Source: an uncultured Methanoregulaceae archaeon
GTDB taxonomy: Archaea > Halobacteriota > Methanomicrobia > Methanomicrobiales > Methanospirillaceae
Reading direction: 5' to 3'
Length of the DNA: 64,000 nt
Assembly (NCBI GenBank): GCA_963705255.1
Contig: OY970061.1
Location: 448,001-512,000 of the forward strand
The notes beneath the pieces were generated by a model. The model was not told where the DNA came from. It searched no databases and was given only the letters and a program-made list of their open reading frames with translations. Both the position numbers and the translations under genes were made by a program. Below, piece after piece: positions 43,000 through 61,500 of the stretch (position 1 is the first letter of the stretch; each line of letters starts with the position of its first letter).

Positions 43000-43500
43000 A
43001 TGTGGTCAGATATCATCCACGAATTTGCCGACTCGCCCTCGCAGAATCGCGTGGTGAGGTTCCTCCTGGAGAACGGGTTTGGGGTAACGGAAGACGGGCG
43101 GATCAGCTGCAACGGGATCGAAGTGCCGGCAACTGCCGTAGCCAAGGTGATCGGTTCCGACCGGAGGGTCGTGGACTCCACCGCGCGGCGCATCCTTGAG
43201 CGCCCGATGCTGCGGGACATCTTTCTCAACATGCGGGCAACGCCGGACCTGAGCAGGGTCGCAGAATCGCTGGGGTTCTTTGTCATCACGGTCCTGCCGA
43301 AGAATGCCAGTGAGCGGGGCATCGTTGGTGCGGCAGTCAGGGTGCTGTCCGAGCACTCCGTTGCAATCCGCCAGATCTTCGTTACCGACCCCCAGTTTTC
43401 CGAAGAGCCGAAACTGGTCATCATCATAGAGGAGGCTCCCCCGGCAGGCGTGGTCGAACAGATCCGGGCGCTGCCTCAGGTAAAACAGGTCATTATCTGA
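43000..43500 (+). CDS. ACT-domain-containing predicted regulator of amino acid metabolism
   Basis: Archaeal family: N-terminal HTH (AKVIGSDRRVV) and C-terminal ACT (GIVGAAVRVL..IRQ). Confidence 0.8.
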   Translation: MWSDIIHEFADSPSQNRVVRFLLENGFGVTEDGRISCNGIEVPATAVAKVIGSDRRVVDSTARRILERPMLRDIFLNMRATPDLSRVAESLGFFVITVLPKNASERGIVGAAVRVLSEHSVAIRQIFVTDPQFSEEPKLVIIIEEAPPAGVVEQIRALPQVKQVII

Positions 43501-43534
43501 AAAAATTCATACCGGTTCAGAACCGGTTCTCTTT

Positions 43535-44036
43535 TCAGCTGCACAGCAGCTCGACTTCGAGGGAAAGACGGTACATCCGCTTTCGGGCTTTCCGTGGAAG
43601 CGTAAACGCGGAGGCCAGGCAGACTCTCAATACTCTCCTGTTTCCGGCCGGCAATCAGGTTATCGGAGTGTGTTACAATCTTCTGCTCGGTCGTCACCGG
43701 CATGCAGTCCCGGGGAGAGAGCCCAAGCAGCGTACACTCGTCGGCGGTGAGGCCGGCGCCGGTATGGCACTCGACAATCCGGGCGACTGCCTCGGGAAAC
43801 CCCTGTTCGCGGAGGAGGTCCGCACCTGCCTGGGCGTGCAGGATAGAATGGGTCCTGCTCCGTCCGATATCATGGAGCATCGCACCTTCTTCCACAAGAC
43901 CGGCATCCACCTCAGGGTTGTGCCCGGCATATCCGCATGCGCACTCCCGTACAGCCCTGCAGTGGGCTATGACTTTCGGGCTGCACCCTGCCCCGTGCAG
44001 AAGATCTTCGTACCTTTTCTGCTTCCGGTCAGGCAT
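43535..44036 (-). CDS. HD-domain (HDIG) phosphohydrolase, frameshift ~43623
   Basis: HC..V, LHDIG, H.G.G, HSD; the corrected tail ends at TGA 43535-43537. Confidence 0.82.
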
Positions 44037-44550
44037 GGCCGAGTGACTTTTTTATCGCTTCTATCCTGAGCTTGAGGGATTTTAAGAGCATCTCGTTGTC
44101 GAAATGCCCCAGCGGCTGGTCGCAGTCGGGGCAGCGGAAATCGCTGTTCATTGCGAGGGGGAACGTGAAGATGAGGTGACACTCTTTGCAGATGTAGAAG
44201 TCGTTCTCCTCTTCGAACCGTTCCCTCCGGGAGAGTTTCTCAAGGACGAGCCCCATGTCCTCCCGGATCGCATCATAGATCCGGTCGGTCCGGAGCTGCC
44301 AGAGATAGGTGAGCCAGCCGGTCTCATTGTTCTTGATCCGGTGGTACTCGGCGAGCCGCTTTTCATAGAGGGTATAGAGCGTGTGCCGTACCGAGTTTAA
44401 GTTGATACCCGTACTTGCTGCGAGATCTTCGTCGCTGTGTTCCCCCTCTTTTGGGAAGCGTTCGAGAAGATTGAGCCCTTCATCGCCGACAAGGCGGTGG
44501 AGGTACGCACGTATTGCCGGATCGTTCAGCGTTTCTTCGGTTGGATCCAT
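44029..44550 (-). CDS. tfe: archaeal transcription factor E (TFE-alpha)
   Basis: Winged helix (VRHTLYTLYE, GWLTYLW) plus Zn ribbon CKEC...CPDC. Confidence 0.93.
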   Translation of the reverse strand: MDPTEETLNDPAIRAYLHRLVGDEGLNLLERFPKEGEHSDEDLAASTGINLNSVRHTLYTLYEKRLAEYHRIKNNETGWLTYLWQLRTDRIYDAIREDMGLVLEKLSRRERFEEENDFYICKECHLIFTFPLAMNSDFRCPDCDQPLGHFDNEMLLKSLKLRIEAIKKSLGHA

Positions 44551-45626
44551 CAGCGCATATATTGTCGGACGGTAGTAATATGCTTATCCAGCACCGACAG
44601 CGCTTCCGTGCGGGTGGCACCGCTGCCGTACACGCTGACAACTGCCTGCCCTTCCTCAAATCGGGTTCCGGGCCACGGGATGTCGGCAACGAGGCCCTTC
44701 AGCTGTGCAAGGTCGGCGTTGACGGTCAGGTCCCGCTCTGCGAAGAGGATCCTTCGGGCAGCCACCTGGTTCGGGGGTGGTACGGAGTCCGGGAGTCTTC
44801 CCGCACAGGCATCTGCATGGAGCTGGAACAGGTTGCACCCGCACGCCATCTCGACCGTATCGACCGTCCCCTGGAAGCGCGGGTTCACCTCAATTGCCCA
44901 TGCCTCCCCGTCACCGGCCACGAAATCGATCCCGATGGTCCCGCTGCAGCCGCTCGCTGCTGCGATCCGTTCGGCAGCTGCGACCATGCGTGCATGGAGC
45001 GGGTGGCCGAACGGTGTTACCGAACCGCAGAAACCGAATACCGACTCTCCCCTGCCCTGGAGGAACTGCTCGTTCGTGGCAACGGCCCGCGCGCCGACAC
45101 CGTCCGTGATACAGCAGACACTCGCGGGCACGCCCCTGGCCAGTTCCTGGCGGATGGAGGGGACATCAGGGTAGAGCGATTCCCAGGCACGCAGCTCTTC
45201 TGCGTTCTGAACAACTGCATTCCGCCACCCGCCGGCTCCTCTCCGGGGCTTGACCATGGCGGGAAACTCCCCGGCCCCCATGAGCCGGGGGACCGGGACG
45301 TCCAGCTGCTCAAAAAAATGCTGGGTATCCAGCTTGTCGAGAAACCGTGCGATCTTCTCCCGGGGGGTCCCGCAGAGCGGGATCGTCACCGGCAGGTCTT
45401 CTGCCCCGGACGTTGTGACGAACAGGTCAAATGCATGGCGCCGTGCCATCCGGTCGATCGCCCCGGGAAGGTCTTCGAGGGCCTCGAACTTCTCCCGGTC
45501 CCGGGTGCACCACCCCAGGTCCTGGTCGCAGAAGTGATCGACGGCACACACTTCATACCCTGCACGATATGCCGACTGTGCGACGTGGCGTGTCGCAAAG
45601 CCGGCGACCAGGACCCTCCCCTTCAC
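44550..45626 (-). CDS. ATP-grasp domain protein
   Basis: [22 protein letters not shown]. Confidence 0.85.
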
Positions 45627-46153
45627 CGTTCCTCCGTCTGCTTTCCGGCTTTTGACGGCACGATGCGGATCTGCGCCCCGGGAAACTCGTTCCGCAGTTC
45701 CTCCCCGGAGAAGAGGTGGTCGAGGAAGAGCGCCAGGCTCGAGATCTCGGAATGGGGCTGGGCAGTGACGGCCACATTGTAGTCGGCAAGGCCGTAAATC
45801 TCGCCGGGCACTTTCTCTGCCCCGACAATGACGAGTATCTTTTCATGCGGCCGTATCCCGCTGACAACGTCCGGCAGGTTCAGGCCGTACATCGTCAGGT
45901 GGACGACCGTTCCCCCGGAGGCCTTCCACTCCTTTATGCAGGAGCGCCACTTCACGTTATCCTCGCAGAAGAAGTCCCCGCCCCAGCGCTCCACAACGTC
46001 CGCGATGCTCCGGACAACCCCCTTGTCGGATGCAGCAAGGTACATCCCCGCCGCGCCCAGCGCCCGCCCGGTCAGGCCGACATGGGTGGTGACGCGCTGG
46101 TCGCGTTCGGGACGGTGGCCGATCCGGAGAATAACAACCTCGCGTGCCGGCAT
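45623..46153 (-). CDS. trm56: tRNA (cytidine(56)-2'-O)-methyltransferase
   Basis: [31 protein letters not shown] (SPOUT fold). Confidence 0.95.
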
Positions 46154-46154
46154 G

Positions 46155-46427
46155 TCAGGTCTTCCTCTGCTTTACCACGCCGTTTTCGATGGTGAACGGG
46201 AGACTGTCATCATATTTTGCCTGGTTCCGGATGAGGGACTCGCCGAACGTCAGCACCCGTACCTGTTCCCCGTCCCGCTCGATGAGGCAGGAGCGGTCAA
46301 GGCGTACCAGGGAGGCTTCGACTGATGACCGGCCAAGCCCGCTCTTGTCGACAAGCATCTCCACGCTGGCCGGTGATGCCGGGGGGATCAGGTGGTAGAC
46401 CAGCCAGTCCGCATCCTCTTCTTTCAC
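46155..46427 (-). CDS. small winged-helix protein
   Basis: 90 aa in the operon with trm56; HTH-like [15 protein letters not shown]. Confidence 0.65.
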
Positions 46428-46529
46428 CTGTATTCATTCCATGCGGAGGTGAATAAGGGTTGTTGTCCCGGGCTGCACAGGGGTGCGGTCTTCAGCGATT
46501 TTTTTATCCTCCGCAACCAATACGTGGCA

Positions 46530-46940
46530 ATGAGTACTGACCGTTCGGTAGTCCCGTATCCCACGCTGGTTGCCACAGCCGACAAACTCCTCGATGACTG
46601 CGAGGACGATGTGGTCTGCCTCTCGATACGGATAGGCTCTCTTGATGCGGACCTGCAGAGCGAACTGCTGGTCTCCGACCTGCTCAACGCGTACCAGGCA
46701 TTCTATCACTCCTTCCGGACTGCCCCGGATGATCTTCTCAGGGAGCGCCTTGAACTGGAGCCTGCGTCCGCGCTTGTCCACGGCCTGAAGATCGCCGAGA
46801 TCGATCTCCTCGAACTCTTCTTTCTCGTCCGGGACAACGAGCCAATCGTCGCTATCAGTGACGGGGAAAAGGTTGTTGCTGAATATACCGGCCGGAATGC
46901 CTATGCAAACGCGATGAAGTTCGTTGAAAACCCGCAGTGA
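46530..46940 (+). CDS. hypothetical protein
   Basis: ORF from ATG 46530 with coding-like composition, divergent from the trm56 operon. Confidence 0.6.
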   Translation: MSTDRSVVPYPTLVATADKLLDDCEDDVVCLSIRIGSLDADLQSELLVSDLLNAYQAFYHSFRTAPDDLLRERLELEPASALVHGLKIAEIDLLELFFLVRDNEPIVAISDGEKVVAEYTGRNAYANAMKFVENPQ

Positions 46941-47380
46941 ACAGACTGAGTGAACAGACCGGAAATCTTTTGCATACGGCTCCGGAAAAAATGTATCCGG
47001 AAGAAAGCCGGTGCCACACCCGGGTACATTTTTTTATTCCCTATTCTTCTTTGGTTCCCGGTTACTGTTATGCGATCGAATGATGACTCGTCCGAACTTT
47101 CGTAAACATTTGCGGGTTCAGGTAGTCATATATATTTTTGTATATAATACATTAAGAATACAATATCTGGCCCGCGCGAATCCTGCGGCAGTTGTTGAAG
47201 GCTGGTGTCTCGTATGGCCAGGACGAGTGGTTGAATGATTGGAGTGAGCTTTATAGACGTGAAAGAGGAGAAAATTGCTGTAGCTGCCGGGCCGGCATGC
47301 ATTCCGCCCGGCAGGATGCCGGGAAATTTCATCGACAAACTTTGGTGCACGGACGGATCGTCTCTACCCGGAGATACCGC

Positions 47381-47842
47381 ATGACCCGGGGGCGCATACC
47401 GGTTCGCGCCCTCGGGTTCGCGGAGCCGATCGCGGAGAAGCGGGGACTGGTCCAGCATTACGTGCGCGAGCCCGGAGCGATCTGTAATTTTGAGATCCTG
47501 AGCCCGGGCATCGTGACAAAGGTGGCACTCAGGTGCGTCCGCAGGCTCGGCTGTTCGATACGGGAGATCGAACGGGACCTCGGGGCGGAGATCGCGGAGA
47601 TCCGGATCATCGCGTCTTCGCGGGAGATCTCCCGCGAGCTCTGGCTCTGCTCGCCCCGGTACGCGTACCGCTTCTTCCGGGTCCTGGATGACGAGCTCGT
47701 CGAGCTCGATCGGGACGGCTCTCCGCTGCCGGTAACGATAGCCGGTGCCGGGCTGCCGGGTCCTGGCCCGGTACCACCCTCCGGCCCCCAGCCCGGAGCT
47801 GATCAGCCTGACACGGGGAAAAAAACCGGAACCGTTCCTTAG
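47381..47842 (+). CDS. hypothetical protein (MTRGR.P...RELWL..RFFRV type) with low-complexity tail; frame reopens to 48091
   Basis: ATG 47381; an in-frame TAG lies inside a 51-nt repeat. Confidence 0.6.
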   Translation: MTRGRIPVRALGFAEPIAEKRGLVQHYVREPGAICNFEILSPGIVTKVALRCVRRLGCSIREIERDLGAEIAEIRIIASSREISRELWLCSPRYAYRFFRVLDDELVELDRDGSPLPVTIAGAGLPGPGPVPPSGPQPGADQPDTGKKTGTVP

Positions 47843-47950
47843 TCCGGTTCCAATCCACCGGGCACGGACAAAAAATCCGGAATCAGTTCTCAACCCGGTG
47901 CCGAGCAACGGGACAATGATAAAAAATCCGGAACCCTCTCTGAACTCGGT
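47789..47950 (+). repeat. degenerate 51-nt (17-codon) tandem repeat, about 3 copies
   Basis: Units start at 47789, 47840, 47891 and 47942, with AAAAAAWCCGGAA in each full unit. Confidence 0.75.
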
Positions 47951-48936
47951 CCTGGCAATCCGATCACGGGCACGCCGGCCGCTTCCGGACCGGTGCCCGG
48001 CGCCATGACGCCAGCACCCGGCCCTGCGTCCGGTACCGGGCCGGTTACCCCCACCAATCCACCGGATGGTCAGACGCCCGGCAGGGACTAACCCGGCGGG
48101 GTCACGCGCTTCGCGGGCGTCCGGGTCACTTCCCACGCCGCTCTTTTCGATCTGCTCTTTCTGCCTGGACTACGAAATGACGCAGGATCTCCTTGGAGAT
48201 TATACTAATTACTAATTAGCAGAAATAGTGAAATCTTCTCATTGGCAGTTAGTGACCGCCGGTAATGCAGGATGTCCGGTTTGCCCGGGGCTCCTGGGGG
48301 GCGGCAAGGTTCTTCGACGAGCAGATCCCTACCCGGACATGGGGGGCAAGACTACCGCCCATTCGAAGAACCCCTCCGGGGTTCTTCTCGTAGTTCACCC
48401 CTTCAGGGTTCACTATTTTCAAATCTGGCTCCTTTTCGAAAACGGGGGCTAATTTGCGGGAATTCACCCGGGCCGGGATCTTCAGGAGTTCCGGAAAAGT
48501 GCGTAATTCCGGGAAAATGGATGTAAATTCAAAATAATTCGCTCGTTACGGCCACAGTTTGTTGAAAATCACATCTGAATCCCAAAGTGCGCTAACAGAA
48601 GCAATTGGCTGATAAAACCCTTTTTTTCCAGGGTACAGCAGGCAGATCGAAGGAAACCCCTGTTTTTACGGATCCGATCTTCCGTCGGAAATTGTTATTT
48701 CTCCGTTGTAGAATCTGATGACGCTCCTCCTTTAGGTGAGATGATCGGTCGGATGTTGGAGTTGAGTATAACCCCTGACGTTCTGAGATCATTGATCTAT
48801 TGGATTTATAGAGAATATTTTCTGCACTTTCACACCGTGGATCAGCAGGTTTATTGTGTGACGCAATGAAGGGGAAATCAATCAATAAAATTCAAGTGAG
48901 AACGATAAAATTCTTCGATAAAACCCAGTGTTGACT

Positions 48937-51109
48937 ATGTATTATGCTCATTCAACAAAAAATCCGGATAAATCTGACTGGCAGCTCCTCCGCGATCATC
49001 TGACCAATGTTGCAACAATCTCGGGAGAGTTCGCTTATGATTTCAACGCCGGTGAATTGGCATATACGAGCGGACTCCTTCATGATCTCGGGAAATATTC
49101 CCTGGAATTCCAGAGGCGTCTTGAAGATCCCTGCATTCGGGCAGATCACTCGACAGCCGGTGCCCTGGAAGCCGGTAAATCCTACCATCAATCCTATGGC
49201 CGCGTCCTCTCGTACGTTATCGTCGGCCACCACGGCGGGCTCCTGAATTTCGGCAGCGTTGAGAGCGGGCTCGAAGAACGGTTGCGGAGGACCAGCATCC
49301 CGGATTATTCTCAGCTACAGAGACGAGATCGCTTTGCGTGATCAGAATTTATTCCAGCTCGCACTGAAACCGCTCCCCAAAAAATCCGGGTTTTGTCTCT
49401 CTTTTTTCACACGATTACTATACTCATGCCTCGTGGATGCGGACTCGCTCGACACGGAAAGATTCGTGGCTCCGGAAAAATTTTCCGTACGCGGGACATT
49501 CGACTCGTTCGAAAAACTCCGGGAAAAGTTCGATGCAGTCATGCAGGAAAAAAATTCCCGGGCAACCGATTCCCTCATCAACCGGGAGCGAAAAAATATT
49601 TTCGACCAGTGTGTCGCGGCCGGCTCGCAACAGCCTGGATTTTTTTCCCTGACCGTTCCAACGGGCGGGGGCAAGACTCTCTCCTCCATGGCCTTCGCGC
49701 TCGAACACCTGAAGAAAAACAATCTGAAGCGGATCTTTTATATCATCCCCTACACGAGCATTATCGAGCAGAATGCCAAGGTTTTCCGGGATGTCTTCGG
49801 GAACCCGAATGTGCTGGAGCATCATAGTAATTTTGATCCCACGAGCTTGAAAGACGACAATGATCCCGTTTGCGAATCGCTCAAGCTCGCTACCGAGAAC
49901 TGGGACATGCCGATTGTGGTCACGACTAATGTCCAGTTCTTCGAGTCGCTCTTCTCTAACAAACGATCCCGGTGCCGGAAACTGCATAACCTTGCCAGGA
50001 GCGTGATCATTCTTGACGAGGCCCAGATGCTCCCGACCGGGTACTTTCTCCCCTGCCTCGCTGCGTTGTCGGAACTTGTCCGGAATTATGGTGCAACGGT
50101 CGTCATCTGTACCGCTACCCAGCCGAAACTTGGCGCACTGCTGGACGAGAGCCTCAGGCCACGGGAGATCATCGATTCACCGGATAAATTGTATGAATCC
50201 TTCAAGCGGGTACGGGTGACTGATCTGAAATCTCTCAGCGATTCAGACCTTTCATCGAGGTTGAAAGAGCTTCCCCGTGTCCTGTGCATCGTGAATACCC
50301 GGAATCACGCAAAGAAATTGTACGATCTCCTCCAGCCCTCCGGGTCCTGCTATCATCTCAGTGCGCGGATGTGTCCCATCCATCGCAGAAAGATGATTGT
50401 GGAGATCAAAGATCTGCTCAAAGAAGGCAAGGACTGCCGGGTAATTTCAACGCAGTTGATCGAAGCCGGGGTTGATATCGATTTCCCGGTTGTGTATCGG
50501 ATAATGAGCGGAATCGATTCGATCGCTCAGGCTGCCGGGAGGTGCAACCGTGAGGGTAAATTACAAGATCTTGGTGAGGTCTTTGTCTTCAAGTCCGAGG
50601 AGAAATACGCTAGGGCAACCGCATGGCAGAACCGTATCGCCGAAATTGGCGAAATGGCGATGAGTTCGTCGCCAGACTCACTTTCGCTCGAAACAATAGC
50701 AGATTATTTCGGGCGATTATACCACTATGAAGATCTCGATATCGAGAAGATCCTTCCCAGAATCGAAGAGCGAAACCGGGAACTTGCATTTCCTTTTGAA
50801 GATATTGCCACGGATTTTCAGTTTATTGATGAGGGTACTAAAGACGTAATAATTCCATTCGACGCTAATGCAAAATTAAAGATTGAAAAACTTCGCAATT
50901 CCGATTCCCCATGGAAGACAGCCCGGGAACTTCAGGGATATTCAGTCAGTATATATCCCAATGAATTCGGGGAGATGGTGAAGATGAATGCGGTCGAGAT
51001 GATTGCCGACCGGTTTTTCATATTAAAATCCTGTGAGGATTATTCCGATGAAACGGGACTGAAGAACCGGTACAATGTCGGTTATGATGGATCGTTATTG
51101 ATGACTTAG
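48937..51109 (+). CDS. cas3: Cas3 HD nuclease-helicase, frameshift ~49312
   Basis: YAHS..HL, LHDLGK, HHGGL; PTGGGKT, LDEAQ, TATQP, QAAGRCNR. Confidence 0.93.
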
Positions 51110-51115
51110 AAGGAG

Positions 51116-51829
51116 GTGGTGGATATTGGATTTGGAATCAAACTGAAAGTCTGGGGCGATTATGCCTGCTTCACACGCCCCGAGATGAAGGTCGAGCGGG
51201 TGAGCTATGACGTGATGACGCCTTCAGCTGCAAGAGGAATTCTCGAAGCAATCTACTGGAAGCCTGCGATTACATGGGAGATTGACCGGATTCACGTAAT
51301 GAACGAGATCAAGTTCGATAATATCCGGCGGAACGAAGTGCTCGGAAAAATATCGTCAAAGACTGTCAGCAATGCAATGCAGGGAAAAGAGATTTCGTTA
51401 TTCATTAATGCAAATGATAAAAATGTCCGGGATCAGCGAGCTTCGGTTATCCTCCGAGATGTTTTGTATTATATTGAAGCTCATTTCAACATGACCGGAA
51501 AAGCAGGTCCCGACGATACCGTTGAAAAACATTACAATGTAGCCCTCAGAAGAATGCGAAAAGGCCAATGCTTTCATAATCCGTATTTTGGGTGTAGAGA
51601 ATTTCCGGTCGCATTTGAATTGGTTGAGGGAGAAATTCCAAAGTCTCAATTTTATGGAAAAACCGGAGAAACAAAAGACCTTGGGATGATGCTTTGGGAT
51701 ATGGACTTTTCGAAAGTAAAAGAGGATTTTTCGAATATAAATGAAATCAAGGCCGTTTTTTTCCATGCGTCTATGGTAGATGGCGTGATGGACGTGCAGA
51801 AGTGCCTCAAGGAGGGATCATTCTCATGA
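51116..51829 (+). CDS. cas5: type I-C Cas5 (Cas5c/Cas5d, crRNA processing)
   Basis: ACFTRPEMKVERVSY..TPSAARG, YFGCREF. Confidence 0.95.
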   Translation: MVDIGFGIKLKVWGDYACFTRPEMKVERVSYDVMTPSAARGILEAIYWKPAITWEIDRIHVMNEIKFDNIRRNEVLGKISSKTVSNAMQGKEISLFINANDKNVRDQRASVILRDVLYYIEAHFNMTGKAGPDDTVEKHYNVALRRMRKGQCFHNPYFGCREFPVAFELVEGEIPKSQFYGKTGETKDLGMMLWDMDFSKVKEDFSNINEIKAVFFHASMVDGVMDVQKCLKEGSFS

Positions 51830-53815
51830 TCATCCAATCGCTGGTGAGATATTATGATTACCTCATTGGGGAAGGAGTGAAAATTCCCCGTTTAGGCTAC
51901 AGTCCCGCAGGGGTTTCATTTGTATTAGTTATATCGCCAGATGGAAAATTAACGAATCTCATCGATCTTCGCCACGATGAAAAGAAAAAGCGATCAAGAC
52001 AATTTGAGGTTCCATACCAAAAAGATCACACAAACAAGGTGGAGCCACATTTCATTTGCGACAATGCAAAATATGTTTTTGGCGTAGAAAAAGTGAAAGA
52101 GGATACCTTAAAAAAACTCAATGCCAAACCGGAAGATGTAAAATTTCTTGAAAAAATACCTGACGCCGCCATAGTCGTTACCTCCAGATCACAAAAGTGT
52201 TTTGAAGAATTCCGTTCTTTCCATCATTCTTTGCTTGACAGCGCAGACGATTCGAAGATCAAAATATTTTTGCATTTTCTTGATTCATGGAAACCATTGG
52301 AATTCCTCAGCAACCGGAAAATTGCCGAATACAAGGATGATATATTTTCCAGCGGTAATTTTGTGTTCCAGGTTGATGGGATCTGTCTCCACAAATCTCC
52401 TATTGTCATGAAATTCTGGGAGGCGTACTATTTGGCGCATATAGCCTCCGGTAAAACTACTGATGCACAATGTCTCGTGACCGGACAAAAAGGTGCAGTT
52501 TCACGATTGCACAAAAAGATACGAGGAGTTGCCAATTCACAATCCGCCGGAGCACCGTTAGTAAGTTTCAACAATGATGCCTTTTGCTCCTATGGTCAAG
52601 ATCAAAGTTTCAATGCACCTGTCAGCGAAGTTGCAATGTTCAAGTATACGACAGTCCTGAATTATCTCCTTGAATACAATAGTAAAAACAAAATTCAGAT
52701 TGGCGATGTCACTACAGTATTCTGGGCTGAGACATCAGCCCCCTATCAAGACCTTACGAATATACTTCTAAATTCTATTGGGAAGCAGCAAGAAAAAGAG
52801 AAGGTTGAAACATCAGAAATTGTGAAGGTCAGGGATCTGTCCACCCAGCAATTAATTGGTGACATACTTGATAAGCTAAGGAAAGGCCAAAAATTGCAGC
52901 AAATAGATATCGGCACCAATCCGGATAAAAATTTTTACATCCTCGGATTAACTTCAAACAACGGACGACTTGCCGTCCGATACTGGTATCAGGACAGTTA
53001 TGGGAATTTTATAACCAATCTTGCACGACATCATCTCGATTTGGAAATTTCACGCGGAAAATATGGTCCGGATTACATTTCCATTCCGAGATTACTTAGT
53101 GCTACATTACCGAGAAAAAGAAATAAAAAATTGACCCAAAAATCATCGAAAAAAGAAACAAAGATTATCAGTGATTCAAAACCAGCCAAATTTTCTCCGC
53201 TGATTTCTAGCCTATTAATTAATGCAATTTTGAAAAATCGCCCGTATCCGCAACAAATGTTCAGTGCAATGATAAACCGGGCAAAAACCGGGAGTATTGA
53301 AGATTATGTCCAACTTGATTACGTTCACACAGGCTTCATGAAAGCATACCTCATTCGATTAGCACGAGCTGGATTATCCAATTTCAAAGAGGAGGAAATT
53401 ACTATGAGTTTAAACAAAGCAAGTCCGAGCGTCCCATATCATCTGGGAAGATTATTCGCTGTCCTGGAATTAGCACAGCGGTCAGCACATAACCAACCTG
53501 AAAACCCGAATGCGGGAATTAAGAGAACGATTCGGGACAGTTATTTTGCCGGTGCATCGCAAACTCCGACAGTCTGTGTTTCCGATCATTCTGAAGCTTC
53601 ATCAGCATCATTTGTCTAAACTGAAATCCGATAAGCCCGGACTAGGGATTTATTATTCAAAATTGGTTGCAGAAATTCTCGAGTCTGTGGATAAAATCCC
53701 CGCATATCTTAGTCCGGAAGAACAAGGCATGTTCATGCTTGGATATTATCATCAAAGCATTTACCGGAAAGGTGAAGAGAACGACAGAACTGAAAAGGAG
53801 GATGACCATGAGTGA
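51826..53815 (+). CDS. cas8c: type I-C large subunit Cas8c/Csd1, frameshift ~53573
   Basis: CLVTG, LVSFN...SYG, VFWAE, YHLGRLFAVLE, QGMFMLGYYHQ. Confidence 0.92.
53404..53815 (+). CDS. putative Cas11c translated from an internal start in cas8c
   Basis: GAGGAGG at 53389-53395, 8 nt before in-frame ATG 53404 (MSLNKASPSVPYHLGRL); contains the same frameshift. Confidence 0.65.
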
Positions 53816-54664
53816 ACCCATAAAAAACCGTTATGAATTTGTATTGTTGTTCGATGTTGAAAATGGAAACCCAAACGGGGATCCGGATATGGGAAACATG
53901 CCGAGGATTGATCCCCAAACAGGCTTTGGTATTGTGACCGATGTTGCCCTGAAGCGGAAAATCCGAGATTATGTCGATCTCGTTAAGTCAGGTCAAAAGG
54001 GCTACGATATTTATGTAAAATCCGGCATCGTCCTTAACGATCAACATAAAAAAGCCTATGATTTCATCAAAAAACCTGTATCGAAGAATCCCAGCACAGA
54101 AGACGAAATGAAATTGATCTCATTCATGTGCCAGAATTTCTTCGACATCCGTGCCTTTGGAGCGGTGATGACCCTTGATGTCAACTGCGGCCAGGTCCGG
54201 GACCGGTCCAGCTCACGTTCGCCCGGAGCCAGAATCGTATCTTCCAGCAGGAAGTCACCATCACCCGGCAGGCCGTGGCAAACGCCAAGGATGCCGAGAA
54301 GGGCCAGACGATGGGGAAGAAACAGATCGTTCCCTACGGCCTGTACCGTGCCGAAGGCTACATCTCTGCACACCTCGCAAAGAAAGTCACCGGATTCTCA
54401 GAAGACGATCTCGCCCTGCTCTGGGAGAGCCTGGTCAACATGTTCGAGCACGACCATTCCGCGGCACGGGGAAAACTCTCCGCACGGAAACTGATCGTCT
54501 TCAAGCACGAGAGCGAACTCGGCTGCTGCCAATCGCACGTCCTGTTCGACAAAGTCAAAGTCGAGCGGCTACCTGGTGAACTGCCACCACGATCATTCAG
54601 TGATTACAAAGTCACCGTCGCCAAAGACGTGCCAAAAGGAGTCGAGGTCATCGAGAAGTTATGA
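53808..54664 (+). CDS. cas7: type I-C Cas7c/Csd2, frameshift ~54199
   Basis: NGNPNGDPD, TDVALKRKIR, DIRAFGAV, MFEHDHSAARG; one G is missing in GQVRGPVQ. Confidence 0.93.
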
Positions 54665-55353
54665 GCGGGAGACGATACACGGACGACGAGCTTCTCCTGC
54701 TGTCGGGGATCCAGCACTTCCGGTTCTGCCGGCGGCAGTGGGCGCTTATTCATGTCGAACAGCAATGGGGCGAGAATCTCCGGACACAGGAAGGGCACTT
54801 CGTGCATGAGCGGGTCGACGATCCGTTCTTCAGTGAGAGCCGGGGGGATGTCGTCATCTCGCGGGCGTTCCCTATCGTCTCGTATTCGCTCGGGCTCACC
54901 GGTATCGCTGACATGATCGAGTACACCCGCTCCGATTCCGGTATTCCACTGTCCGGGCATGAAGGGCTGTGGCGGATGAAGCCGGTCGAGTACAAGCGGG
55001 GCAAGCCGAAGGTCGACGAACGCGACGAGGTCCAGCTCTGCGCACAGGTCATGTGCCTCGAAGAGATGTTCGGCATCGGGATCGATTCCGCGGATTTCTA
55101 TTATAACGAAATCCGTCGGAGGCTGCCGCTGAAGATCACCGACAAGCTTAGGAATCTCGTCGCCTCGCTCGCTGAAGAGATGCACGAAATTTTCCGGAAG
55201 GGGATCACGCCTTCGGCCGAGAAGTCGATCCACTGTTCACAGTGTTCACTCGTCGATGTTTGCGTCCCGAAACTGACGAAGAAACGCGTCTCTGTCCGGA
55301 GTTATATCGGGCGGCATGTAGGGGAAGCCTGCCTTATGGACGGGAAATCCTGA
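54661..55353 (+). CDS. cas4: Cas4 RecB-like nuclease
   Basis: FCRRQWAL, PVEYKRG, QLCAQ, C-terminal CxxC..C Fe-S ligands. Confidence 0.95.
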   Translation: MSGRRYTDDELLLLSGIQHFRFCRRQWALIHVEQQWGENLRTQEGHFVHERVDDPFFSESRGDVVISRAFPIVSYSLGLTGIADMIEYTRSDSGIPLSGHEGLWRMKPVEYKRGKPKVDERDEVQLCAQVMCLEEMFGIGIDSADFYYNEIRRRLPLKITDKLRNLVASLAEEMHEIFRKGITPSAEKSIHCSQCSLVDVCVPKLTKKRVSVRSYIGRHVGEACLMDGKS

Positions 55354-55394
55354 GTCATTGATCCCTTCGGGAGATGGCGGGAGATTGCGATATC

Positions 55395-56426
55395 ATGAGA
55401 AAACTGCTGAACACCCTGTACGTCACAACCCCCGAGTCTTTCCTGCACCGGGACGGGGAGAACGTCATCATCAAAGTCGGCACCGAGGAGAGGTTCCGCA
55501 TTCCCATCCACAATCTCGAAGGGATCGTCTGTTTTGGATACATGGGCGCAAGCCCTGCCCTGATGCGCCTCTGCTCCGACAACAATGTCGGGCTCTCGTT
55601 CCTCACACCACACGGGAAATTTCTCGGCCGGGTCTGCGGGAGGGTCAGGGGCAACGTCCTGCTCCGGAGAACCCAGTACCGAATCGCCGATGATGCCCGG
55701 GTCTCTCTCGCGATATCGAAGAATTTCATCGCAGCAAAGATCGTCAACTGCCGGACAATCCTCGGGAGAGGCCTCCGGGATCACGGTGATGTGGTCCACT
55801 GTGATCGAATCCGGTCTGCCGATGCCCTGCTGATCGAAAATCTCCGAAAGATCGAGGACTGCCCGGATGCGGACTCGCTCCGGGGTATAGAAGGGAACTG
55901 CGCGAAGTTCTACTTCGACATATTCGATGAGCTGATCCTGAAACAGAAGAACAATTTCTTCCTCACCGACAGGAATCGCCGGCCACCCCGCGACAACATG
56001 AACGCATTGCTCTCGTTCTTCTACACGCTCCTCGCCCATGACGTCGAGTCAGCGCTCGAGACCGTGGGGCTCGATCCATACGTCGGATTCTTCCACACGG
56101 ACCGGCCGGGAAGGGCGGGCCTCGCGCTTGACATGATGGAAGAGCTCCGGCCGTTCATTGCCGACCGGCTTGCGCTCAATCTCGTGAACCTGCAACAGAT
56201 CTGCGGGGACGATTTTCTCAAAAAAGAAGGTGGTGGAATCATCCTGACTGAGAAGGGGCGGAAAGACGTGCTTGCCGCATGGCAGAAGAGGAAGCAGGAG
56301 GAGATCGTGCATCCATATCTCAACGAAAAGATCCAGATCGGGCTTATCCCGTACGCTCAGGCGATGCTGATGGCCCGGTTCCTGCGCGGGGATATTGACG
56401 GGTATCCGCCGTTCTTCATGAATTAG
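55395..56426 (+). CDS. cas1: type I-C Cas1
   Basis: MRKLLNTLYVT, RGIEG, RNRRPP.D, LALDMMEE. Confidence 0.96.
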   Translation: MRKLLNTLYVTTPESFLHRDGENVIIKVGTEERFRIPIHNLEGIVCFGYMGASPALMRLCSDNNVGLSFLTPHGKFLGRVCGRVRGNVLLRRTQYRIADDARVSLAISKNFIAAKIVNCRTILGRGLRDHGDVVHCDRIRSADALLIENLRKIEDCPDADSLRGIEGNCAKFYFDIFDELILKQKNNFFLTDRNRRPPRDNMNALLSFFYTLLAHDVESALETVGLDPYVGFFHTDRPGRAGLALDMMEELRPFIADRLALNLVNLQQICGDDFLKKEGGGIILTEKGRKDVLAAWQKRKQEEIVHPYLNEKIQIGLIPYAQAMLMARFLRGDIDGYPPFFMN

Positions 56427-56438
56427 GTGATTGCTGTG

Positions 56439-56725
56439 ATGGTCCTGGTTACGTATGATGTGAACACAGAAACGCCGGAGGGCGGAGACGGCTCCGGCAG
56501 GTTGCAAAGGAATGCGAAAATTTCGGTCAGCGTGTACAGAATTCCGTCTTCGAATGTCTCGTCGACCCGGTCCAGTTCGCAAAACTCCAGCACGCGCTGA
56601 AAGGGATCATGGATAAAGAGAAAGACAGCATCCGGTTCTATTATCTCGGCGACAACTGGCAGAATCGTGTCGAACACTGTGGAAGCGGGAAGGGATACGA
56701 TCCGGAAGGTTTATTGATCACGTGA
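56439..56725 (+). CDS. cas2: Cas2, frameshift ~56481 (absent from the ORF track)
   Basis: MVLVTYDV...RRLRQVAKEC..FGQRVQNSVFEC...DSIRFY; needs one more G in GAGGG. Confidence 0.9.
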
Positions 56726-56943
56726 TCGCGAACCGAAAGCTCCCATCGCCTTCCCAAGAGGTTCGCGGGGAAAGTGAAGAACATGTATTTCAATATTCTT
56801 CGGTCTTTCCCAATCTCGAAGAGATTTTATTGCAGAACCTTCGGGGATTTGATCTTTCCCGTTCCGCTCAGATTTTCCTGCGATTGAGGTTTGATGAATG
56901 GGTAGCCTTTAATTTTTGGTGAGCGATGATCTAAACATTTGCA
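56726..56943 (+). promoter_or_regulatory. CRISPR leader
   Basis: Non-coding stretch between cas2 and the first repeat; contains the CGCGAACC/GGTTCGCG inverted repeat at 56727-56767. Confidence 0.8.
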
Positions 56944-58886
56944 GTCACGCCCCTCGCGGGCGTGTGGATTGAAATGTCTTCATCGATGTCTGCATGTATA
57001 TGGATGGGAACGTCACGCCCCTCGCGGGCGTGTGGATTGAAATAAGTTCTTCGGCAGTCATGATGGGGACGTCACAAGTCACGCCCCTCGCGGGCGTGTG
57101 GATTGAAATACGCTTCTCCCCATCGGTGTGACCCCGACCCCGACGTCACGCCCCTCGCGGGCGTGTGGATTGAAATCCGAGGGGATCGCAAGGTTCCATC
57201 CAGTCAACCGTCACGCCCCTCGCGGGCGTGTGGATTGAAATTGGTCAAGACGGATTAATAAATCGTGGTCAGTGAGTCACGCCCCTCGCGGGCGTGTGGA
57301 TTGAAATCCAAACCAATTACCGTAATTTGAACCTCCAAAAAGTCACGCCCCTCGCGGGCGTGTGGATTGAAATTCGTGCGCAGATCATAATTTGTCTGAC
57401 CCATTAAGTCACGCCCCTCGCGGGCGTGTGGATTGAAATCTGGCTTCCGATGTCACGGGGGGCAGCTCGTCAAGTCACGCCCCTCGCGGGCGTGTGGATT
57501 GAAATTCATCCAATTATTATCTTCAGACACCGATCATTGGTCACGCCCCTCGCGGGCGTGTGGATTGAAATAATGCTGGTCAAGCGAACGGGACCAGACG
57601 GTGTGTCACGCCCCTCGCGGGCGTGTGGATTGAAATCGATCCTTGTAACTGCGATCATATGGCTCTATGTCACGCCCCTCGCGGGCGTGTGGATTGAAAT
57701 CACAGTGGCCATATCCGATCACATCGTGGCTCTGGGTCACGCCCCTCGCGGGCGTGTGGATTGAAATGTTTACCGGGCATATTGACTCGTTTAGTGTGCC
57801 GTGTCACGCCCCTCGCGGGCGTGTGGATTGAAATTCTTTTACATCCCGCCGAGATGCACGATGCGGAGCGGTCACGCCCCTCGCGGGCGTGTGGATTGAA
57901 ATTTGATGATCTTGATATATTCCGGGTTTAGTTCGGTCACGCCCCTCGCGGGCGTGTGGATTGAAATTTCCCCCACCTCCAGCGTGACCGTGCCGGAAGT
58001 GGTCACGCCCCTCGCGGGCGTGTGGATTGAAATCTTTCGCTACGGCTTTAGTAACGACTTTATTGAGTCACGCCCCTCGCGGGCGTGTGGATTGAAATCG
58101 ATCCTTGTAACTGCGATCATATGGCTCTATGAGTCACGCCCCTCGCGGGCGTGTGGATTGAAATGGCAGAGCCGGTCAAGACCATGGATGAGATCAGTCA
58201 CGCCCCTCGCGGGCGTGTGGATTGAAATTCATCCAATTATTATCTTCAGACACCGATCATTGACGTCACGCCCCTCGCGGGCGTGTGGATTGAAATAGGC
58301 TTCTTTGTTTCAGGGGCCTTGACAGGTTCCGTCACGCCCCTCGCGGGCGTGTGGATTGAAATCCTGAGCTCAGCCATCATTTCCTGCCGGATCTGGGTCA
58401 CGCCCCTCGCGGGCGTGTGGATTGAAATGGCGAGCTCGGGTCTCTTGTCGGGTCTGTGGTCGTCACGCCCCTCGCGGGCGTGTGGATTGAAATTTATACC
58501 CGGACACGTTCGTCCGATACCAGGAGGTCACGCCCCTCGCGGGCGTGTGGATTGAAATAAAATGGGGAAGGGGAAGAAATAAATGCCCTCATGTCACGCC
58601 CCTCGCGGGCGTGTGGATTGAAATTTGCTATCAAACGGTTTATGCCGGCACGAATGCAGTCACGCCCCTCGCGGGCGTGTGGATTGAAATATCCTAGTCG
58701 TTGAAATCGAAACCAAGACCGTAGTCACGCCCCTCGCGGGCGTGTGGATTGAAATTCGCCCCTGCAATAACCAATCATCAACAGAACTGTCACGCCCCTC
58801 GCGGGCGTGTGGATTGAAATTATATCTATAAAGAACTCCTGCCGATGTATGTCCGTCACGCCCCTCGCGGGCGTGTGGATTGAAAT
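56944..58886 (+). CRISPR. type I-C array: 30 identical 32-nt repeats GTCACGCCCCTCGCGGGCGTGTGGATTGAAAT, 29 spacers of 32-36 nt
   Basis: Counted directly; 7-bp hairpin CACGCCC/GGGCGTG plus 11-nt 3' handle. Confidence 0.98.
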
Positions 58887-59016
58887 ATGAAATCCTCCAC
58901 ATTTTTTCACGATCTAGTTGAACATCTACCGGCCTTTCGCGACCCCCCTCATATTGCATCTTTTTAATGCAGAAAAAGACACATAGTACATTTGGTCCAA
59001 AAAGGAGTAATAGGAT

Positions 59017-59292
59017 ATGCCAAAGAACACCACTCCACTTACCGAGAAAGTTCTCGTCTCCATCGATACAAAACAGGCGTTGATGTCCATCAGGGAGCCG
59101 GGGGAACGGTACGGGGATGTAATCGAACGGGTGCTTCAGGACCGGAAGCGTCATGACTTCCTCGCACACCTGGATAAGATCGCAGAGGAAGGGGAATTCG
59201 TCCCGCTCAACAGCGATCCCGAATACGCGGCACTGAAAAAAGAGAGGCGTCGTGAGAGTAAACATCGACAAGCGGGCGCTGCAGTACGTTAA
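59017..59292 (+). CDS. putative type II antitoxin (RHH-like, archaeal)
   Basis: 91 aa, PGERYGDVIERVL motif; overlaps the downstream toxin-like gene. Confidence 0.7.
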   Translation: MPKNTTPLTEKVLVSIDTKQALMSIREPGERYGDVIERVLQDRKRHDFLAHLDKIAEEGEFVPLNSDPEYAALKKERRRESKHRQAGAAVR

Positions 59293-59518
59293 CCGCCTGC
59301 CGGAGAAGGATCGCAGGATCGTCAAACAGCATCTGATGGAACTTGAAGATCCCTATACTGCCCCGGATGTGGAGCTGTTACAGAACGGTCACTGCCGGAT
59401 GCATATCGCTCATTCCTATACTGCGTTCTTCGATGTCCTGCCCGGGGGCATTGTCAACATTCTCGAAGTTATGACAATCGAGGAAGCGCATAAGCGGTAC
59501 AAGCGGTTCGGGGGGTAA
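59252..59518 (+). CDS. RelE/ParE-family toxin
   Basis: 88 aa; AL.YVNRL.EK.RRIVK.HL, RMHIAHSY.AFF, TIEEAHKRY. Confidence 0.72.
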   Translation: MRVNIDKRALQYVNRLPEKDRRIVKQHLMELEDPYTAPDVELLQNGHCRMHIAHSYTAFFDVLPGGIVNILEVMTIEEAHKRYKRFGG

Positions 59519-59553
59519 TCGACCCTTTCGAGGTCCGCGAGACAGAGCCAATA

Positions 59554-59643
59554 AAGTTCCCCACACACGTGGGGATGAACCACTGTCTGTCTCGGCCCGG
59601 ATGAATACCGGCGCGAACTCCCTACACACACTGGGATGAATTA
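59554..59643 (+). CRISPR. orphan type I-E-like mini-array (two 29-nt repeats, one 32-nt spacer)
   Basis: AAGTTCCCCACACACGTGGGGATGAACCA (59554-59582) and GAACTCCCTACACACACTGGGATGAATTA (59615-59643); 20/29 identical, 61-nt period. Confidence 0.75.
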
Positions 59644-59719
59644 TTTCACTGCAATCCTCCAGGCGAAACATCCGCGGGAATAGGGATTGATCCCGGGGAA
59701 GAAATGCGGGGGATGAGAA

Positions 59720-60004
59720 TTACAACCGCTTATACTTTTTATGGGCCTGCTCAATAGTCAGGATCTCGTTGACGTAGACGGTTTTACCCTCGATCTCATA
59801 ATATACCGTGAAAGTGTGGCCGATATGAAGACGATAAATTTTGACACCCTCCTGGAGATTCAGCAGTTCTTTGTCCCCGCCCTTTCCGGGGTACGGATCG
59901 GTTTCAAAAATCTTGAGATGTGCCTTGATGATCCTTCTGCTTTTAACGTCAAGAGATAGAAAAAATTCACGGGCATCGGTATCGATGCAAACAGAAAAAC
60001 TCAC
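59720..60004 (-). CDS. RelE/ParE-family toxin, paralog of 59252-59518
   Basis: DPYPG.GGDKE, YRLHIGHTFTVYY, TIEQAHKKY. Confidence 0.78.
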   Translation of the reverse strand: MSFSVCIDTDAREFFLSLDVKSRRIIKAHLKIFETDPYPGKGGDKELLNLQEGVKIYRLHIGHTFTVYYEIEGKTVYVNEILTIEQAHKKYKRL

Positions 60005-60207
60005 GCTTCTAACTCCGAGAGCGAGACGTACTTATTTCGCTTTCTGATTCGCTTGGTCTCCTCGATCAGCAGGTTCTCTGAGTTTTTCCGGATAAGTTCA
60101 TTGATGACATCGTCATATGTCTGCCCGGGTTTCCTGAGCTGGTGAACTGTCTCCCATGTGCTTGGGCAAACGGGTATTCGCTTTGTTGCGCATTCCTGTG
60201 CAGTCAT
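60001..60207 (-). CDS. putative type II antitoxin (RHH-like)
   Basis: TKRIPV...KPGQTYDDVINEL; stop overlaps the toxin GTG start. Confidence 0.72.
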   Translation of the reverse strand: MTAQECATKRIPVCPSTWETVHQLRKPGQTYDDVINELIRKNSENLLIEETKRIRKRNKYVSLSELEA

Positions 60208-60225
60208 GACAAGATTGTTAGTATT

Positions 60226-60237
60226 GTAAATATTTAC
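60226..60237 (-). promoter_or_regulatory. palindromic TATA/operator candidate for TA module 2
   Basis: Perfect palindrome GTAAATATTTAC 19-30 nt upstream of ATG 60207. Confidence 0.45.
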
Positions 60238-60406
60238 TGTTTCTGTGCCGGACACTGTCACCGGTGTGGCCACACCTGCTGACCGGGGATTCCCATGTTA
60301 AGAACCCGCCGGATAGCATTTTCATCAAAACCAATTGATCCATTTCCTCCGAAAGCGGTGCCACTCACTAATAATCATCTCGTATCGCACTCACCGGATC
60401 CTTTCC

Positions 60407-61117
60407 TTACCGGTCCCCGGCACTGATCAGCTGCTCGTCCACCACCGCGTGGACAAGGGGCGGGAGGTCTCCCCAGCGGACCGTCGTCCCGCCCATGATG
60501 GCGAGGACGCCCCCGACCTCCCCCGGATCGAGCAGGTCCAGGACCGTGCGGTCGTCGGACCGGATCCGGTTGCAGACCGCGGTGGCCCATGCGTCGGCAA
60601 GGGCAACATCGTGCGAAAAGATGGTCACGGCGTCGGCAATGCCGAACGAGATGGAAGGGCCTACCGTTGCCGAAGAGGTGCAGATGCCGAGGATCCGGTC
60701 CTGTGGCGGGACAACGAACGCGACCCGGTTGGAGAGTGCAGCCTCGCCCGCGTGGACCCCGACCCTCACCGGGCGGTCGCTCACGAGGGCGATGTCGCCG
60801 CCGTTGTCAATAACCCCGAACGGTGCCCCTGCGGCCTGCATAGCCTCGACGCCCGCCCATGCGATCGCCCCGGCAACGGCAGCCATCGGCCCCACTCCCG
60901 CCCTGCGGGCCGCACCTGCCATGCGGACGATGATCCGCTCGTCCGAATCCGGCGTGTAGGGATCGAAGGTGGCTGCAAAAAAAGGGTCGCGGGCGATATG
61001 CCGTTCGAGCGCCTGCCGCGCCCCGAGGATGCCCTCCTTTGCCGCGGCGATGTGGGCCGGGTCATCGGCGAGGATCGTGGCTATGGTCTCCCGGAAGCGG
61101 AACGGCTCCCGGATCAT
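60407..61117 (-). CDS. UPF0280 ApbE-like protein
   Basis: GPMAAVAG, DNGGDI, CTSSATVGPSISFG.ADA; start at MIREPFRF. Confidence 0.88.
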   Translation of the reverse strand: MIREPFRFRETIATILADDPAHIAAAKEGILGARQALERHIARDPFFAATFDPYTPDSDERIIVRMAGAARRAGVGPMAAVAGAIAWAGVEAMQAAGAPFGVIDNGGDIALVSDRPVRVGVHAGEAALSNRVAFVVPPQDRILGICTSSATVGPSISFGIADAVTIFSHDVALADAWATAVCNRIRSDDRTVLDLLDPGEVGGVLAIMGGTTVRWGDLPPLVHAVVDEQLISAGDR

Positions 61118-61500
61118 AGCGGCAGGGAGAGCGCCCGGTGCGGGCACGCGTCCACGCACTTGCCGCAGAGGATACACCGCTCCTCGGCAAGGACCATCTT
61201 CCAGTCCGGGTCGAACGAGAAGACTTCCCGGGGGCAGACACTGATACAGGCACCGCAGTCCACGCACTCGCTCTCGTTCTTGTTGATGCCGTGCTCGAGG
61301 ATGCGGACCTGGGCGCCAAGACTGGTCATGGAGTCCCGGACCAGCCTGCACTGGTCGTCCGGCACATCGATCAGTGCCTCTCCCTCGGACGAATCGATCA
61401 CCGCACGCTCGACATTGATCAGGACACCGGTATCGCGGACTACCTGCGCGATGATCGGCTTCCTCCCCTTTCCCCGCGAGAAGTTGACGAGGAGTTTCAT
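61114..61500 (-). CDS. NIL domain + 2x[4Fe-4S] ferredoxin (MA1822-like homocysteine synthesis partner)
   Basis: CVDCGACISVCP and CILCGKCVDACP; ATGA overlap with the upstream gene. Confidence 0.88.
   Translation of the reverse strand: MKLLVNFSRGKGRKPIIAQVVRDTGVLINVERAVIDSSEGEALIDVPDDQCRLVRDSMTSLGAQVRILEHGINKNESECVDCGACISVCPREVFSFDPDWKMVLAEERCILCGKCVDACPHRALSLPL

Follow-up and report, generated by a model that had tools for sequence, protein, structure and literature searches.

Two type I-E CRISPR repeats between convergent toxin-antitoxin modules of a Methanoregulaceae archaeon: very probably the trailer remnant of a lost array

Is a CRISPR repeat-spacer-repeat unit that lies between two toxin genes a regulatory RNA gene, or is it what is left of an array? 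This question is raised by a 201-nucleotide (nt) gap in the genome of an uncultured Methanoregulaceae archaeon (NCBI GenBank assembly GCA_963705255.1). The DNA analyzed, hereafter the window, is a stretch of 64,000 nt (positions 448,001 to 512,000 of contig OY970061.1), and coordinates given without a contig name refer to it. The gap, at 59519-59719, separates the stop codons of two convergent toxin-antitoxin (TA) modules, TA1 and TA2, and holds a type I-E repeat (R1), a spacer and a second, decayed repeat (R2). A preliminary description, made from the sequence alone, proposed either a regulator resembling a CRISPR RNA (crRNA) and coupled to the TA modules, or an RNA anti-CRISPR, in both cases linking two CRISPR subtypes; its fallback was the stump of a type I-E locus displaced by the adjoining type I-C system. 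Our analysis favors the fallback, and the unit is very probably the surviving trailer end, that is, the last two repeats and the last spacer, of a lost type I-E array and an inert relic. The genome is closed, a single contig of 2,600,650 bp with a marker-based completeness estimate of 89.5%; it is labeled G000 below, relatives carry other G-numbers, and C1 and so on denote contigs.

The 7-bp stem of R1 (TCCCCAC/GTGGGGA) is perfect and closes a loop of 4 nt. R1 also has an ATGAACC tail, and compared with the I-E array repeats of congeners, mismatches were found at the first and last base only (27/29). The 26-nt core of R1 had no match in 100 dinucleotide shuffles of the window. R2 starts exactly 61 nt after R1 and shares 20 of the 29 positions with it; the chance probability of such a match at a fixed offset is about 1e-6 by a rough estimate. 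The near-canonical repeat with hairpin and handle, the 32-nt spacer and the decayed repeat one period further on, as read in the preliminary description, are therefore all in place, and so is their lack of relation to the 32-nt I-C repeat, whose array lies directly in front of the TA pair. That a palindrome resembles an I-E repeat by chance, for which the small size of the feature alone speaks, is extremely improbable: in addition to the shuffling result and the exact spacing of R2, G263 and G303 have array repeats, and G292 a solitary repeat, that agree with R1 throughout its 27-nt core, and a full array occupies the syntenic position in G243, as described below.

One element of the gap had gone unnoticed in that reading, which was otherwise right about R1, the spacer and R2. 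Beginning 13 nt beyond R2, we found a decayed copy of a 37-nt repeat belonging to a third array type, and it is the sole match to this repeat in the genome. It aligns with the terminal repeat of the 58-copy array of G323, and the alignment continues into the TA2 3′ flank common to the two genomes. A decayed 37-nt repeat beside the I-E tail means that two array types left stumps in the gap. A third I-E repeat was also considered in the tail of the gap (59664-59719) and was rejected, as this segment consists of the 37-nt repeat relic and the TA2 3′ flank.

The models for the I-E proteins Cas6e, Cse1, Cas7e and Cse2 (TIGR01907, TIGR02547, TIGR01869 and TIGR02548) were compared with the whole 2.60-Mb genome, and none of the four matched at an expectation value (E) of 1 or below; the generic Cas6 model had no match in the genome either. 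The lack of I-E cas genes described for the window thus extends to the whole genome. According to a k-mer scan, the I-C array is the sole true array of the genome, and of the two Cas1 matches one is the I-C cas1 and the other a solitary cas1 that is not an I-E cas1. This solitary gene (C1:2529550-2530386, locus L095; 316 amino acids (aa), 144 bits with the generic Cas1 model) sits between genes for a PaaK-like coenzyme A ligase and an acylphosphatase, with no array or other cas gene near.

The search for the repeat itself, which the preliminary description had suggested together with that for the cas genes, found R1 to be single-copy: with as many as 3 mismatches allowed, no second copy of the 23-nt core turned up in the whole genome, and the full 29-nt R1 at up to 8 substitutions gave just two genome-wide matches, each with 8 substitutions, which we read as chance. 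The I-E periodicity amounts to one 61-nt unit ending in the decayed R2, with no further repeat. In the arrays of G263, G273 and G213, a TATA-like ATATAAAA-type motif precedes the first repeat, and by eye no counterpart of this leader motif was found upstream of R1. Of the features of a functional I-E array, R1 has the repeat (29 nt, stem-loop, ATGAACC(G)-type handle), and neither a leader nor a cognate Cas6e/Cascade accompanies it. With no factor in this cell that could process or load it, the stump would be without CRISPR function.

Elsewhere in the order the repeat family is common: with 3 mismatches or fewer to the 23-nt core, 65 of 301 genomes matched, this one included, and many of these 65 have arrays of tens to hundreds of copies (368 at most) with the 61-nt period. 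Within the genus, I-E arrays are present in G217, G202 and G243, and in G263 cas7e lies on the same contig as the I-E array.

We then compared the DNA adjoining the UPF0280-like gene, which flanks the TA2 module on the right, in 49 loci from 48 genomes; the loci cut short by contig ends include G205, G243, G292, G335, G322, G211, G314 and G303. The gene is present in 54 of the 60 other genus genomes searched. In G243, 23 I-E repeats, oriented like R1 and R2, run up to the contig start. The terminal repeat of this array is degenerate at its 3′ side and is separated by about 17 nt from the UPF0280 stop codon. Its loop variant, ACACAC, is that of R1 and R2; the other repeats of the array have ACATGC. 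A full I-E array thus terminates next to the UPF0280-like gene with the orientation of R1 and R2, which supports the fallback of a displaced I-E locus. Lack of a cognate Cas6e and a relative with a full I-E array ending at this place were among the findings named beforehand as speaking for an inert relic instead of a regulator, and both were made.

Other states of the site were observed in the other relatives. In G292 an I-C array is followed, after 29 nt, by one perfect I-E repeat and, after a further 26 nt, by the UPF0280 stop codon; there is no TA module. In G323, cas1-cas2-cas4 are followed by the array of 37-nt repeats, a TA2 homologue and the UPF0280-like gene, and TA2 is 79% identical to the module behind this array. 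A TA1 homologue stands alone at the site, without I-E repeats, in G319 (87% identical), G322 (74.5%) and G311 (90%), and decayed 37-nt repeats lie beside the UPF0280-like gene in G311 and G310. At many other loci the left-flank gene directly abuts the right-flank gene. In the closest relative, G143, whose flanks are 95-96% identical, the site is empty and the flanks are about 134 nt apart; the left-flank homology (43500-46940, 95% identical) breaks off at 46940. This comparison defines 46941-60406 as a 13.5-kb island. Its GC content is 40-59% in 1-kb bins over 47000-59999 (40-56% from 48000 on), compared with 59-64% in the flanks.

The arrangement of a mini-array enclosed by two TA modules was found in none of the 49 homologous loci. 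When 59490-59750 was compared by blastn with 107 other genus genomes, none covered the whole stretch, only G323 matched query positions 174-261, and the spacer and R2 had no match. The conservation of the TA-mini-array-TA arrangement in relatives, which had been put forward as a check, was consequently not observed. A metagenome contig of 2364 nt (X1) spans 59350-60400 with 2 differences; DNA with this arrangement is thus known from beyond the assembly, though the contig may come from the source sample. A 151-nt contig (X2) spans 59507-59631 with 3 differences, and in further contigs (X4) the R1 sequence is bordered by other spacers.

Table 1. Features of the locus, with coordinates in positions of the window
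Feature	Coordinates	Strand	Remarks
R1, near-intact type I-E repeat	59554-59582	+	27/29 to G263 array repeats and G292 solitary repeat
Spacer of the stump, 32 nt	59583-59614	+	Between R1 and R2
R2, decayed terminal type I-E repeat	59615-59643	+	20/29 to R1 and to consensus
Decayed 37-nt repeat of a third array type	59657-59693	+	27/37 to G323 repeat
TA1 antitoxin, 91 aa	59017-59292	+	Weak VapB-antitoxin and DUF7623 matches
TA1 toxin, 88 aa	59252-59518	+	Paralogue of TA2 toxin
TA2 toxin, 94 aa, RelE/ParE-like	59720-60004	-	PF05016 and TIGR02683, both below cut-off
TA2 antitoxin, 68 aa	60001-60207	-	DUF7557, E 3e-5
Type I-C cas operon (cas3, cas5c, cas8c, cas7c, cas4, cas1c, cas2)	48928-56700	+	NCBIfam matches
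Type I-C CRISPR array, 30 identical 32-nt repeats	56944-58886	+	Sole true array of the genome
Duplicated I-C spacer stretches, first pair	57473-57562 and 58196-58285		
Duplicated I-C spacer stretches, second pair	57602-57691 and 58064-58153		
Left-flank gene, conserved	46392-46940	+	End is the left edge of the variable island
Variable island, 13.5 kb	46941-60406		Missing from closest relative; GC below flanks
Right-flank gene, UPF0280/PRK04334-like	60407-61351	-	NF003324, E 3.9e-99; hot-spot anchor; stop at 60407

These site states suggest the following course of events, of which we infer both the order of the replacements and the stump's lack of a present function. An I-E array would formerly have stood at a recombination and insertion hot spot between the conserved left-flank gene and the UPF0280-like gene. 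A 37-nt-repeat array with TA2 would first have been located beside the UPF0280-like gene, as in G323, and an I-E locus would then have displaced all of that array except its terminal repeat. Later, the I-C cas operon and array together with TA1 would have displaced all but the last two I-E repeats, with loss of the I-E cas genes, and R1 is probably the penultimate repeat of the lost array. The composite island may finally have moved between species via recombination in the conserved flanks, as is suggested by its low GC content and its absence from the nearest relative. TA1 and TA2 are taken here as independent paralogous cassettes and not as partners of the mini-array, since TA cassettes occupy the hot spot alone in other species, and at most the convergent TA operons would carry the stump along passively in their 3′ untranslated read-through.

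A trailer stump of this kind resembles known vestigial array remnants in its degenerate terminal repeat, in the lack of cognate cas genes and in the full array at the homologous position of a relative. The last feature was found twice here, with the I-E array of G243 ending about 17 nt from the gene stop and the 37-nt array of G323 reaching to the TA2 flank. A review (PMC8047081) describes the trailer end of arrays, together with polymorphic terminal repeats, as unusually resistant to loss and as the part of an array that resists it most, and the survival of terminal repeats at this locus fits that description. The present case differs in that the stumps of two array types lie 13 nt apart, behind an intact I-C array and between two paralogous TA cassettes.

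Several points weigh against the view that R1-spacer-R2 is an inert trailer relic. R1 is near-intact (27/29 with a perfect hairpin), although the species sharing the I-E relic have just 76-77% identity in the flanking gene, and a neutral relic inherited vertically should be more decayed. The intactness of R1 thus needs a recent loss, a horizontal movement of the site content or selection on the hairpin. In addition, no common trailer spacers were seen in the I-C arrays of G000 and G292, so that the placement of an I-C array beside an I-E stump either arose repeatedly or is old; this hints at a recurring process. If the loss was recent and repeats are kept uniform in active arrays, both the intactness of R1 and the difference between G000 and G292 would be explained. 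The marker completeness of 89.5% makes the missing I-E cas genes a strong, not an absolute, finding. G243, too, had no Cas6e or Cas7e match in its 30-contig assembly, and its array may or may not be active. Finally, the + strand of the gap folds markedly well (z -3.06; none of 200 shuffles folds as well), which is expected from palindromic repeats and also compatible with a structured RNA.

The folding result bears on the alternative that the relic hairpin, or hairpins, have been exapted as an RNA structure and serve as a 3′ end, terminator or stabilizer between the convergent TA operons. The position of R1, which begins 35 nt past the TA1 stop codon, is consistent with such a use, and both strands bear T-rich tracts, the + strand past R2 (TTATTT) and the - strand downstream of TA2. 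However, TA1 in G319, G311 and G322 and TA2 in G323 have no I-E hairpin, indicating that the TA cassettes can do without it, and folding of the - strand is unremarkable (z -1.74). An outer 9-bp inverted repeat around R1 was rejected, as it is within chance, being present in 233 of 5000 shuffles and in 48 of 638 real windows of 201 nt. We therefore consider an exapted structure unlikely. Separately, an Rfam scan of 58800-60400 returned NiCo (E 2.5) and Chlorobi-1 (E 0.6; over the R1 hairpin, scoring 15.3 bits where the gathering score is 50), and both were rejected as chance-level matches.

If the unit were instead a TA-coupled crRNA-like RNA of the CreA/CreR type, it would be loaded into Cascade and repress a toxin or cas promoter, thereby tying the TA modules to CRISPR-Cas. 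The architecture is indeed alike: beside toxin genes, one good repeat is followed by a 32-nt spacer and then by a degenerate repeat. Regulatory mini-arrays with partial matches to the promoters of cas8 or of TA cargo are widespread according to a survey preprint (bioRxiv 10.1101/2023.03.03.530964). The preprint gives their features as a repeat derived from the array of their own locus, a partial, PAM-adjacent match (PAM, protospacer-adjacent motif) that contains the seed and lies in a cas or cargo promoter, and the effector of the locus; none of the three was found at R1-spacer-R2. There is no I-E effector or Cas6e in the genome, and the repeat differs in subtype from the adjoining I-C locus, whose genes show four apparent frame breaks.

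Within the island, a target for the spacer was also lacking. In the seed-weighted comparison with the island, the best site matched 9 of the 10 seed positions and 16/32 overall, which is inside the range of shuffled spacers, and no target with seed and PAM was obtained, the measure being a partial match of 10 bp or more with the 5′ seed in a cas or toxin promoter; the partial PAM-adjacent promoter matches in the host that had been anticipated did not, within the island, exceed those of shuffled spacers. By total identity, the best match in the island is 22/32 at 48454-48485, without AAG, a marginal value reached by 3 of 100 shuffles. The best non-self match in the own genome is an exact 17-nt match of spacer positions 11-27 at C1:1330099-1330115 (E 0.003; 34.2 bits compared with at most 30.2 in 30 shuffles); having neither seed match nor PAM, it is unexplained and probably due to chance. 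Exact matching of the spacer against the viral database IMG/VR, likewise suggested beforehand, gave no hits. Because the spacer and R2 are in addition kept in none of the 107 congeners, and the toxins here are proteins of a type II family in contrast to the CreT-like RNAs of CreTA/CreR systems, the idea of a TA-coupled regulator did not hold up, and we regard it as highly improbable.

The segment of the island with the 22/32 match belongs to a non-coding element (48415-48713) upstream of cas3. This element recurs at the hot spot in G285, G205, G331 and G302, four copies are present in G241, and one further copy with 65% identity lies in this genome at C1:643033.

Mini-arrays that look more like regulatory candidates than R1-spacer-R2 were seen in other genomes. 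In G214 (L026/L051, C1:683194-684100) and on contig C5 of G273 (L025/L050), cas6e is directly followed by a one-spacer I-E mini-array. The spacers of the G214 mini-array and of a three-repeat mini-array on contig C8 of G273 (L029) have their first 16 nt in common, while the spacer on C5 of G273 differs; the mini-array on C8 adjoins only a weak, partial cas6e-like match.

A solitary repeat could also act as an RNA anti-CRISPR (Racr) or decoy, the R1 hairpin titrating Cas6e or Cas7e of an I-E system, for example one brought by a competing element. R1 retains a perfect hairpin and handle and is in this respect a nearly perfect lone repeat outside a functional array, like the solitary repeat units of viruses and plasmids that mimic array repeats and are described as Racrs in PMC10651486; the low-GC island is, moreover, probably horizontally acquired. 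Unlike those units, R1 is chromosomal and syntenic with the array end of a relative, and this cell has no I-E system of its own that could be inhibited. Among the annotated open reading frames (ORFs) of the island, no virus, plasmid or other mobile-element genes were seen, and the full array at the homologous site of G243 explains the repeat without a function. The badly decayed repeat of another type alongside also points to debris and not to a maintained decoy. With neither an I-E effector nor Cas6e in the genome and the unit unconserved, an anti-CRISPR that links two subtypes has very little probability. In a broader version, the R1 hairpin would be maintained as a functional RNA, either a guide like a crRNA or a Cas6e/Cascade decoy, directed at I-E systems that mobile elements bring in or used by such systems in trans. 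The flanking paralogous TA cassettes would then be addiction modules that tie the layered CRISPR island, and with it the gene for this small RNA, to the hot spot. This version seems very unlikely to us as well.

Further lone or paired I-E-like repeats were noted in the order, as follows. Locus L024 (G242:C3:61318-64340) is an I-E mini-array with one spacer; its genome gave no match to Cas6e or Cas7e, and a TA2-toxin homologue with 55% identity is found about 1.3 kb away. Single I-E-like repeats occur at L004 (G018), at L010 (G095) and at G150:C16:66361-66383, with a variant common to G095 and G150; those at L004 and L010 come directly after an apparent gene stop codon, without a second repeat. 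Locus L008 (G172:C2:34633-37655, reverse strand, about 1380-1580) has three solitary repeat hairpins, one of them I-C-like and two, spaced 55 nt apart, I-E-like. They lie next to small ORFs and repeated, promoter-like blocks rich in TATATAC, and the locus may be a mobile element bearing solitary repeat units of two subtypes.

As for the TA modules, both are two-gene cassettes in which a small antitoxin gene is followed by an overlapping small toxin gene, and they are convergent. The two toxins are 42% identical (E 3e-18) and the two antitoxins 23% identical (E 3e-7). The preliminary description called them RelE-type; two convergent modules are indeed present, and the type name derives from models scoring below threshold and from the names of homologues. 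The TA2 toxin matched PF05016 (ParE_toxin) with E 0.05 (14.6 bits, cut-off 23) and the NCBIfam model TIGR02683 (RelE/ParE) with E 0.0064 (16.8 bits, cut-off 62.85), and the TA1 toxin had no match. A database search with the TA2 toxin gave 244 homologues at E ≤ 0.001. Several of the 120 listed bear source-given names, RelE/StbE or RelE/ParE, a few have PF05016, and the organism names are Methanoregula and Methanomicrobiales. Compared with PDB sequences, the TA2 toxin had no match at E ≤ 10. Judged by sequence, RelE-type TA is a reasonable functional label, and family membership is unproven.

The modules resemble type II RelE/ParE systems in being antitoxin-toxin operons of about 70-95 aa per protein, with weak model matches and a position at array ends; TA systems beside CRISPR arrays are described for another organism in PMC5961336. 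They differ in scoring below the curated cut-offs, in that their activity is putative and in antitoxins that match DUF7557 or weak VapB-type models only. A third copy of the family is present at C1:421641-422110, with a toxin 53% identical to that of TA2 and no repeat relic within 1.5 kb.

The I-C cas genes and array lie directly upstream of TA1, and the array is transcribed towards it. Apparent frame breaks were found in four of the genes: cas3, where an HD part (48928-49341) and a helicase part (49259-51109) lie in different frames, cas8c (near 53510-53620), cas7c (near 54190-54275) and cas2 (near 56540). Comparison of the flank with G143 gave 1 indel in 3441 nt, and in the light of this value the breaks are either real decay or assembly errors. 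Two I-C spacers are present twice in the same orientation, in the order A, B ... B, A, which is not a simple tandem duplication. At the left edge of the island, the conserved flanking gene is without an NCBIfam family match.

A TA-coupled regulator, if true, would have been a new link between TA modules and two CRISPR subtypes, and the evidence speaks against it. For annotation, the locus advises caution, as a repeat-spacer-repeat unit beside toxin genes does not make a regulatory mini-array without a cognate effector and a target. Vestigial array ends are already known, and the stacking of the stumps of two array types is mildly interesting. The locus is a natural example of the exchange of CRISPR-Cas cassettes at a fixed chromosomal hot spot, which within one genus is empty or is occupied by an I-E array, an I-C array, a 37-nt-repeat array or TA cassettes alone. 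Behind the current I-C array the terminal repeats of two earlier occupants persist, very probably as a layered record of cassette turnover.

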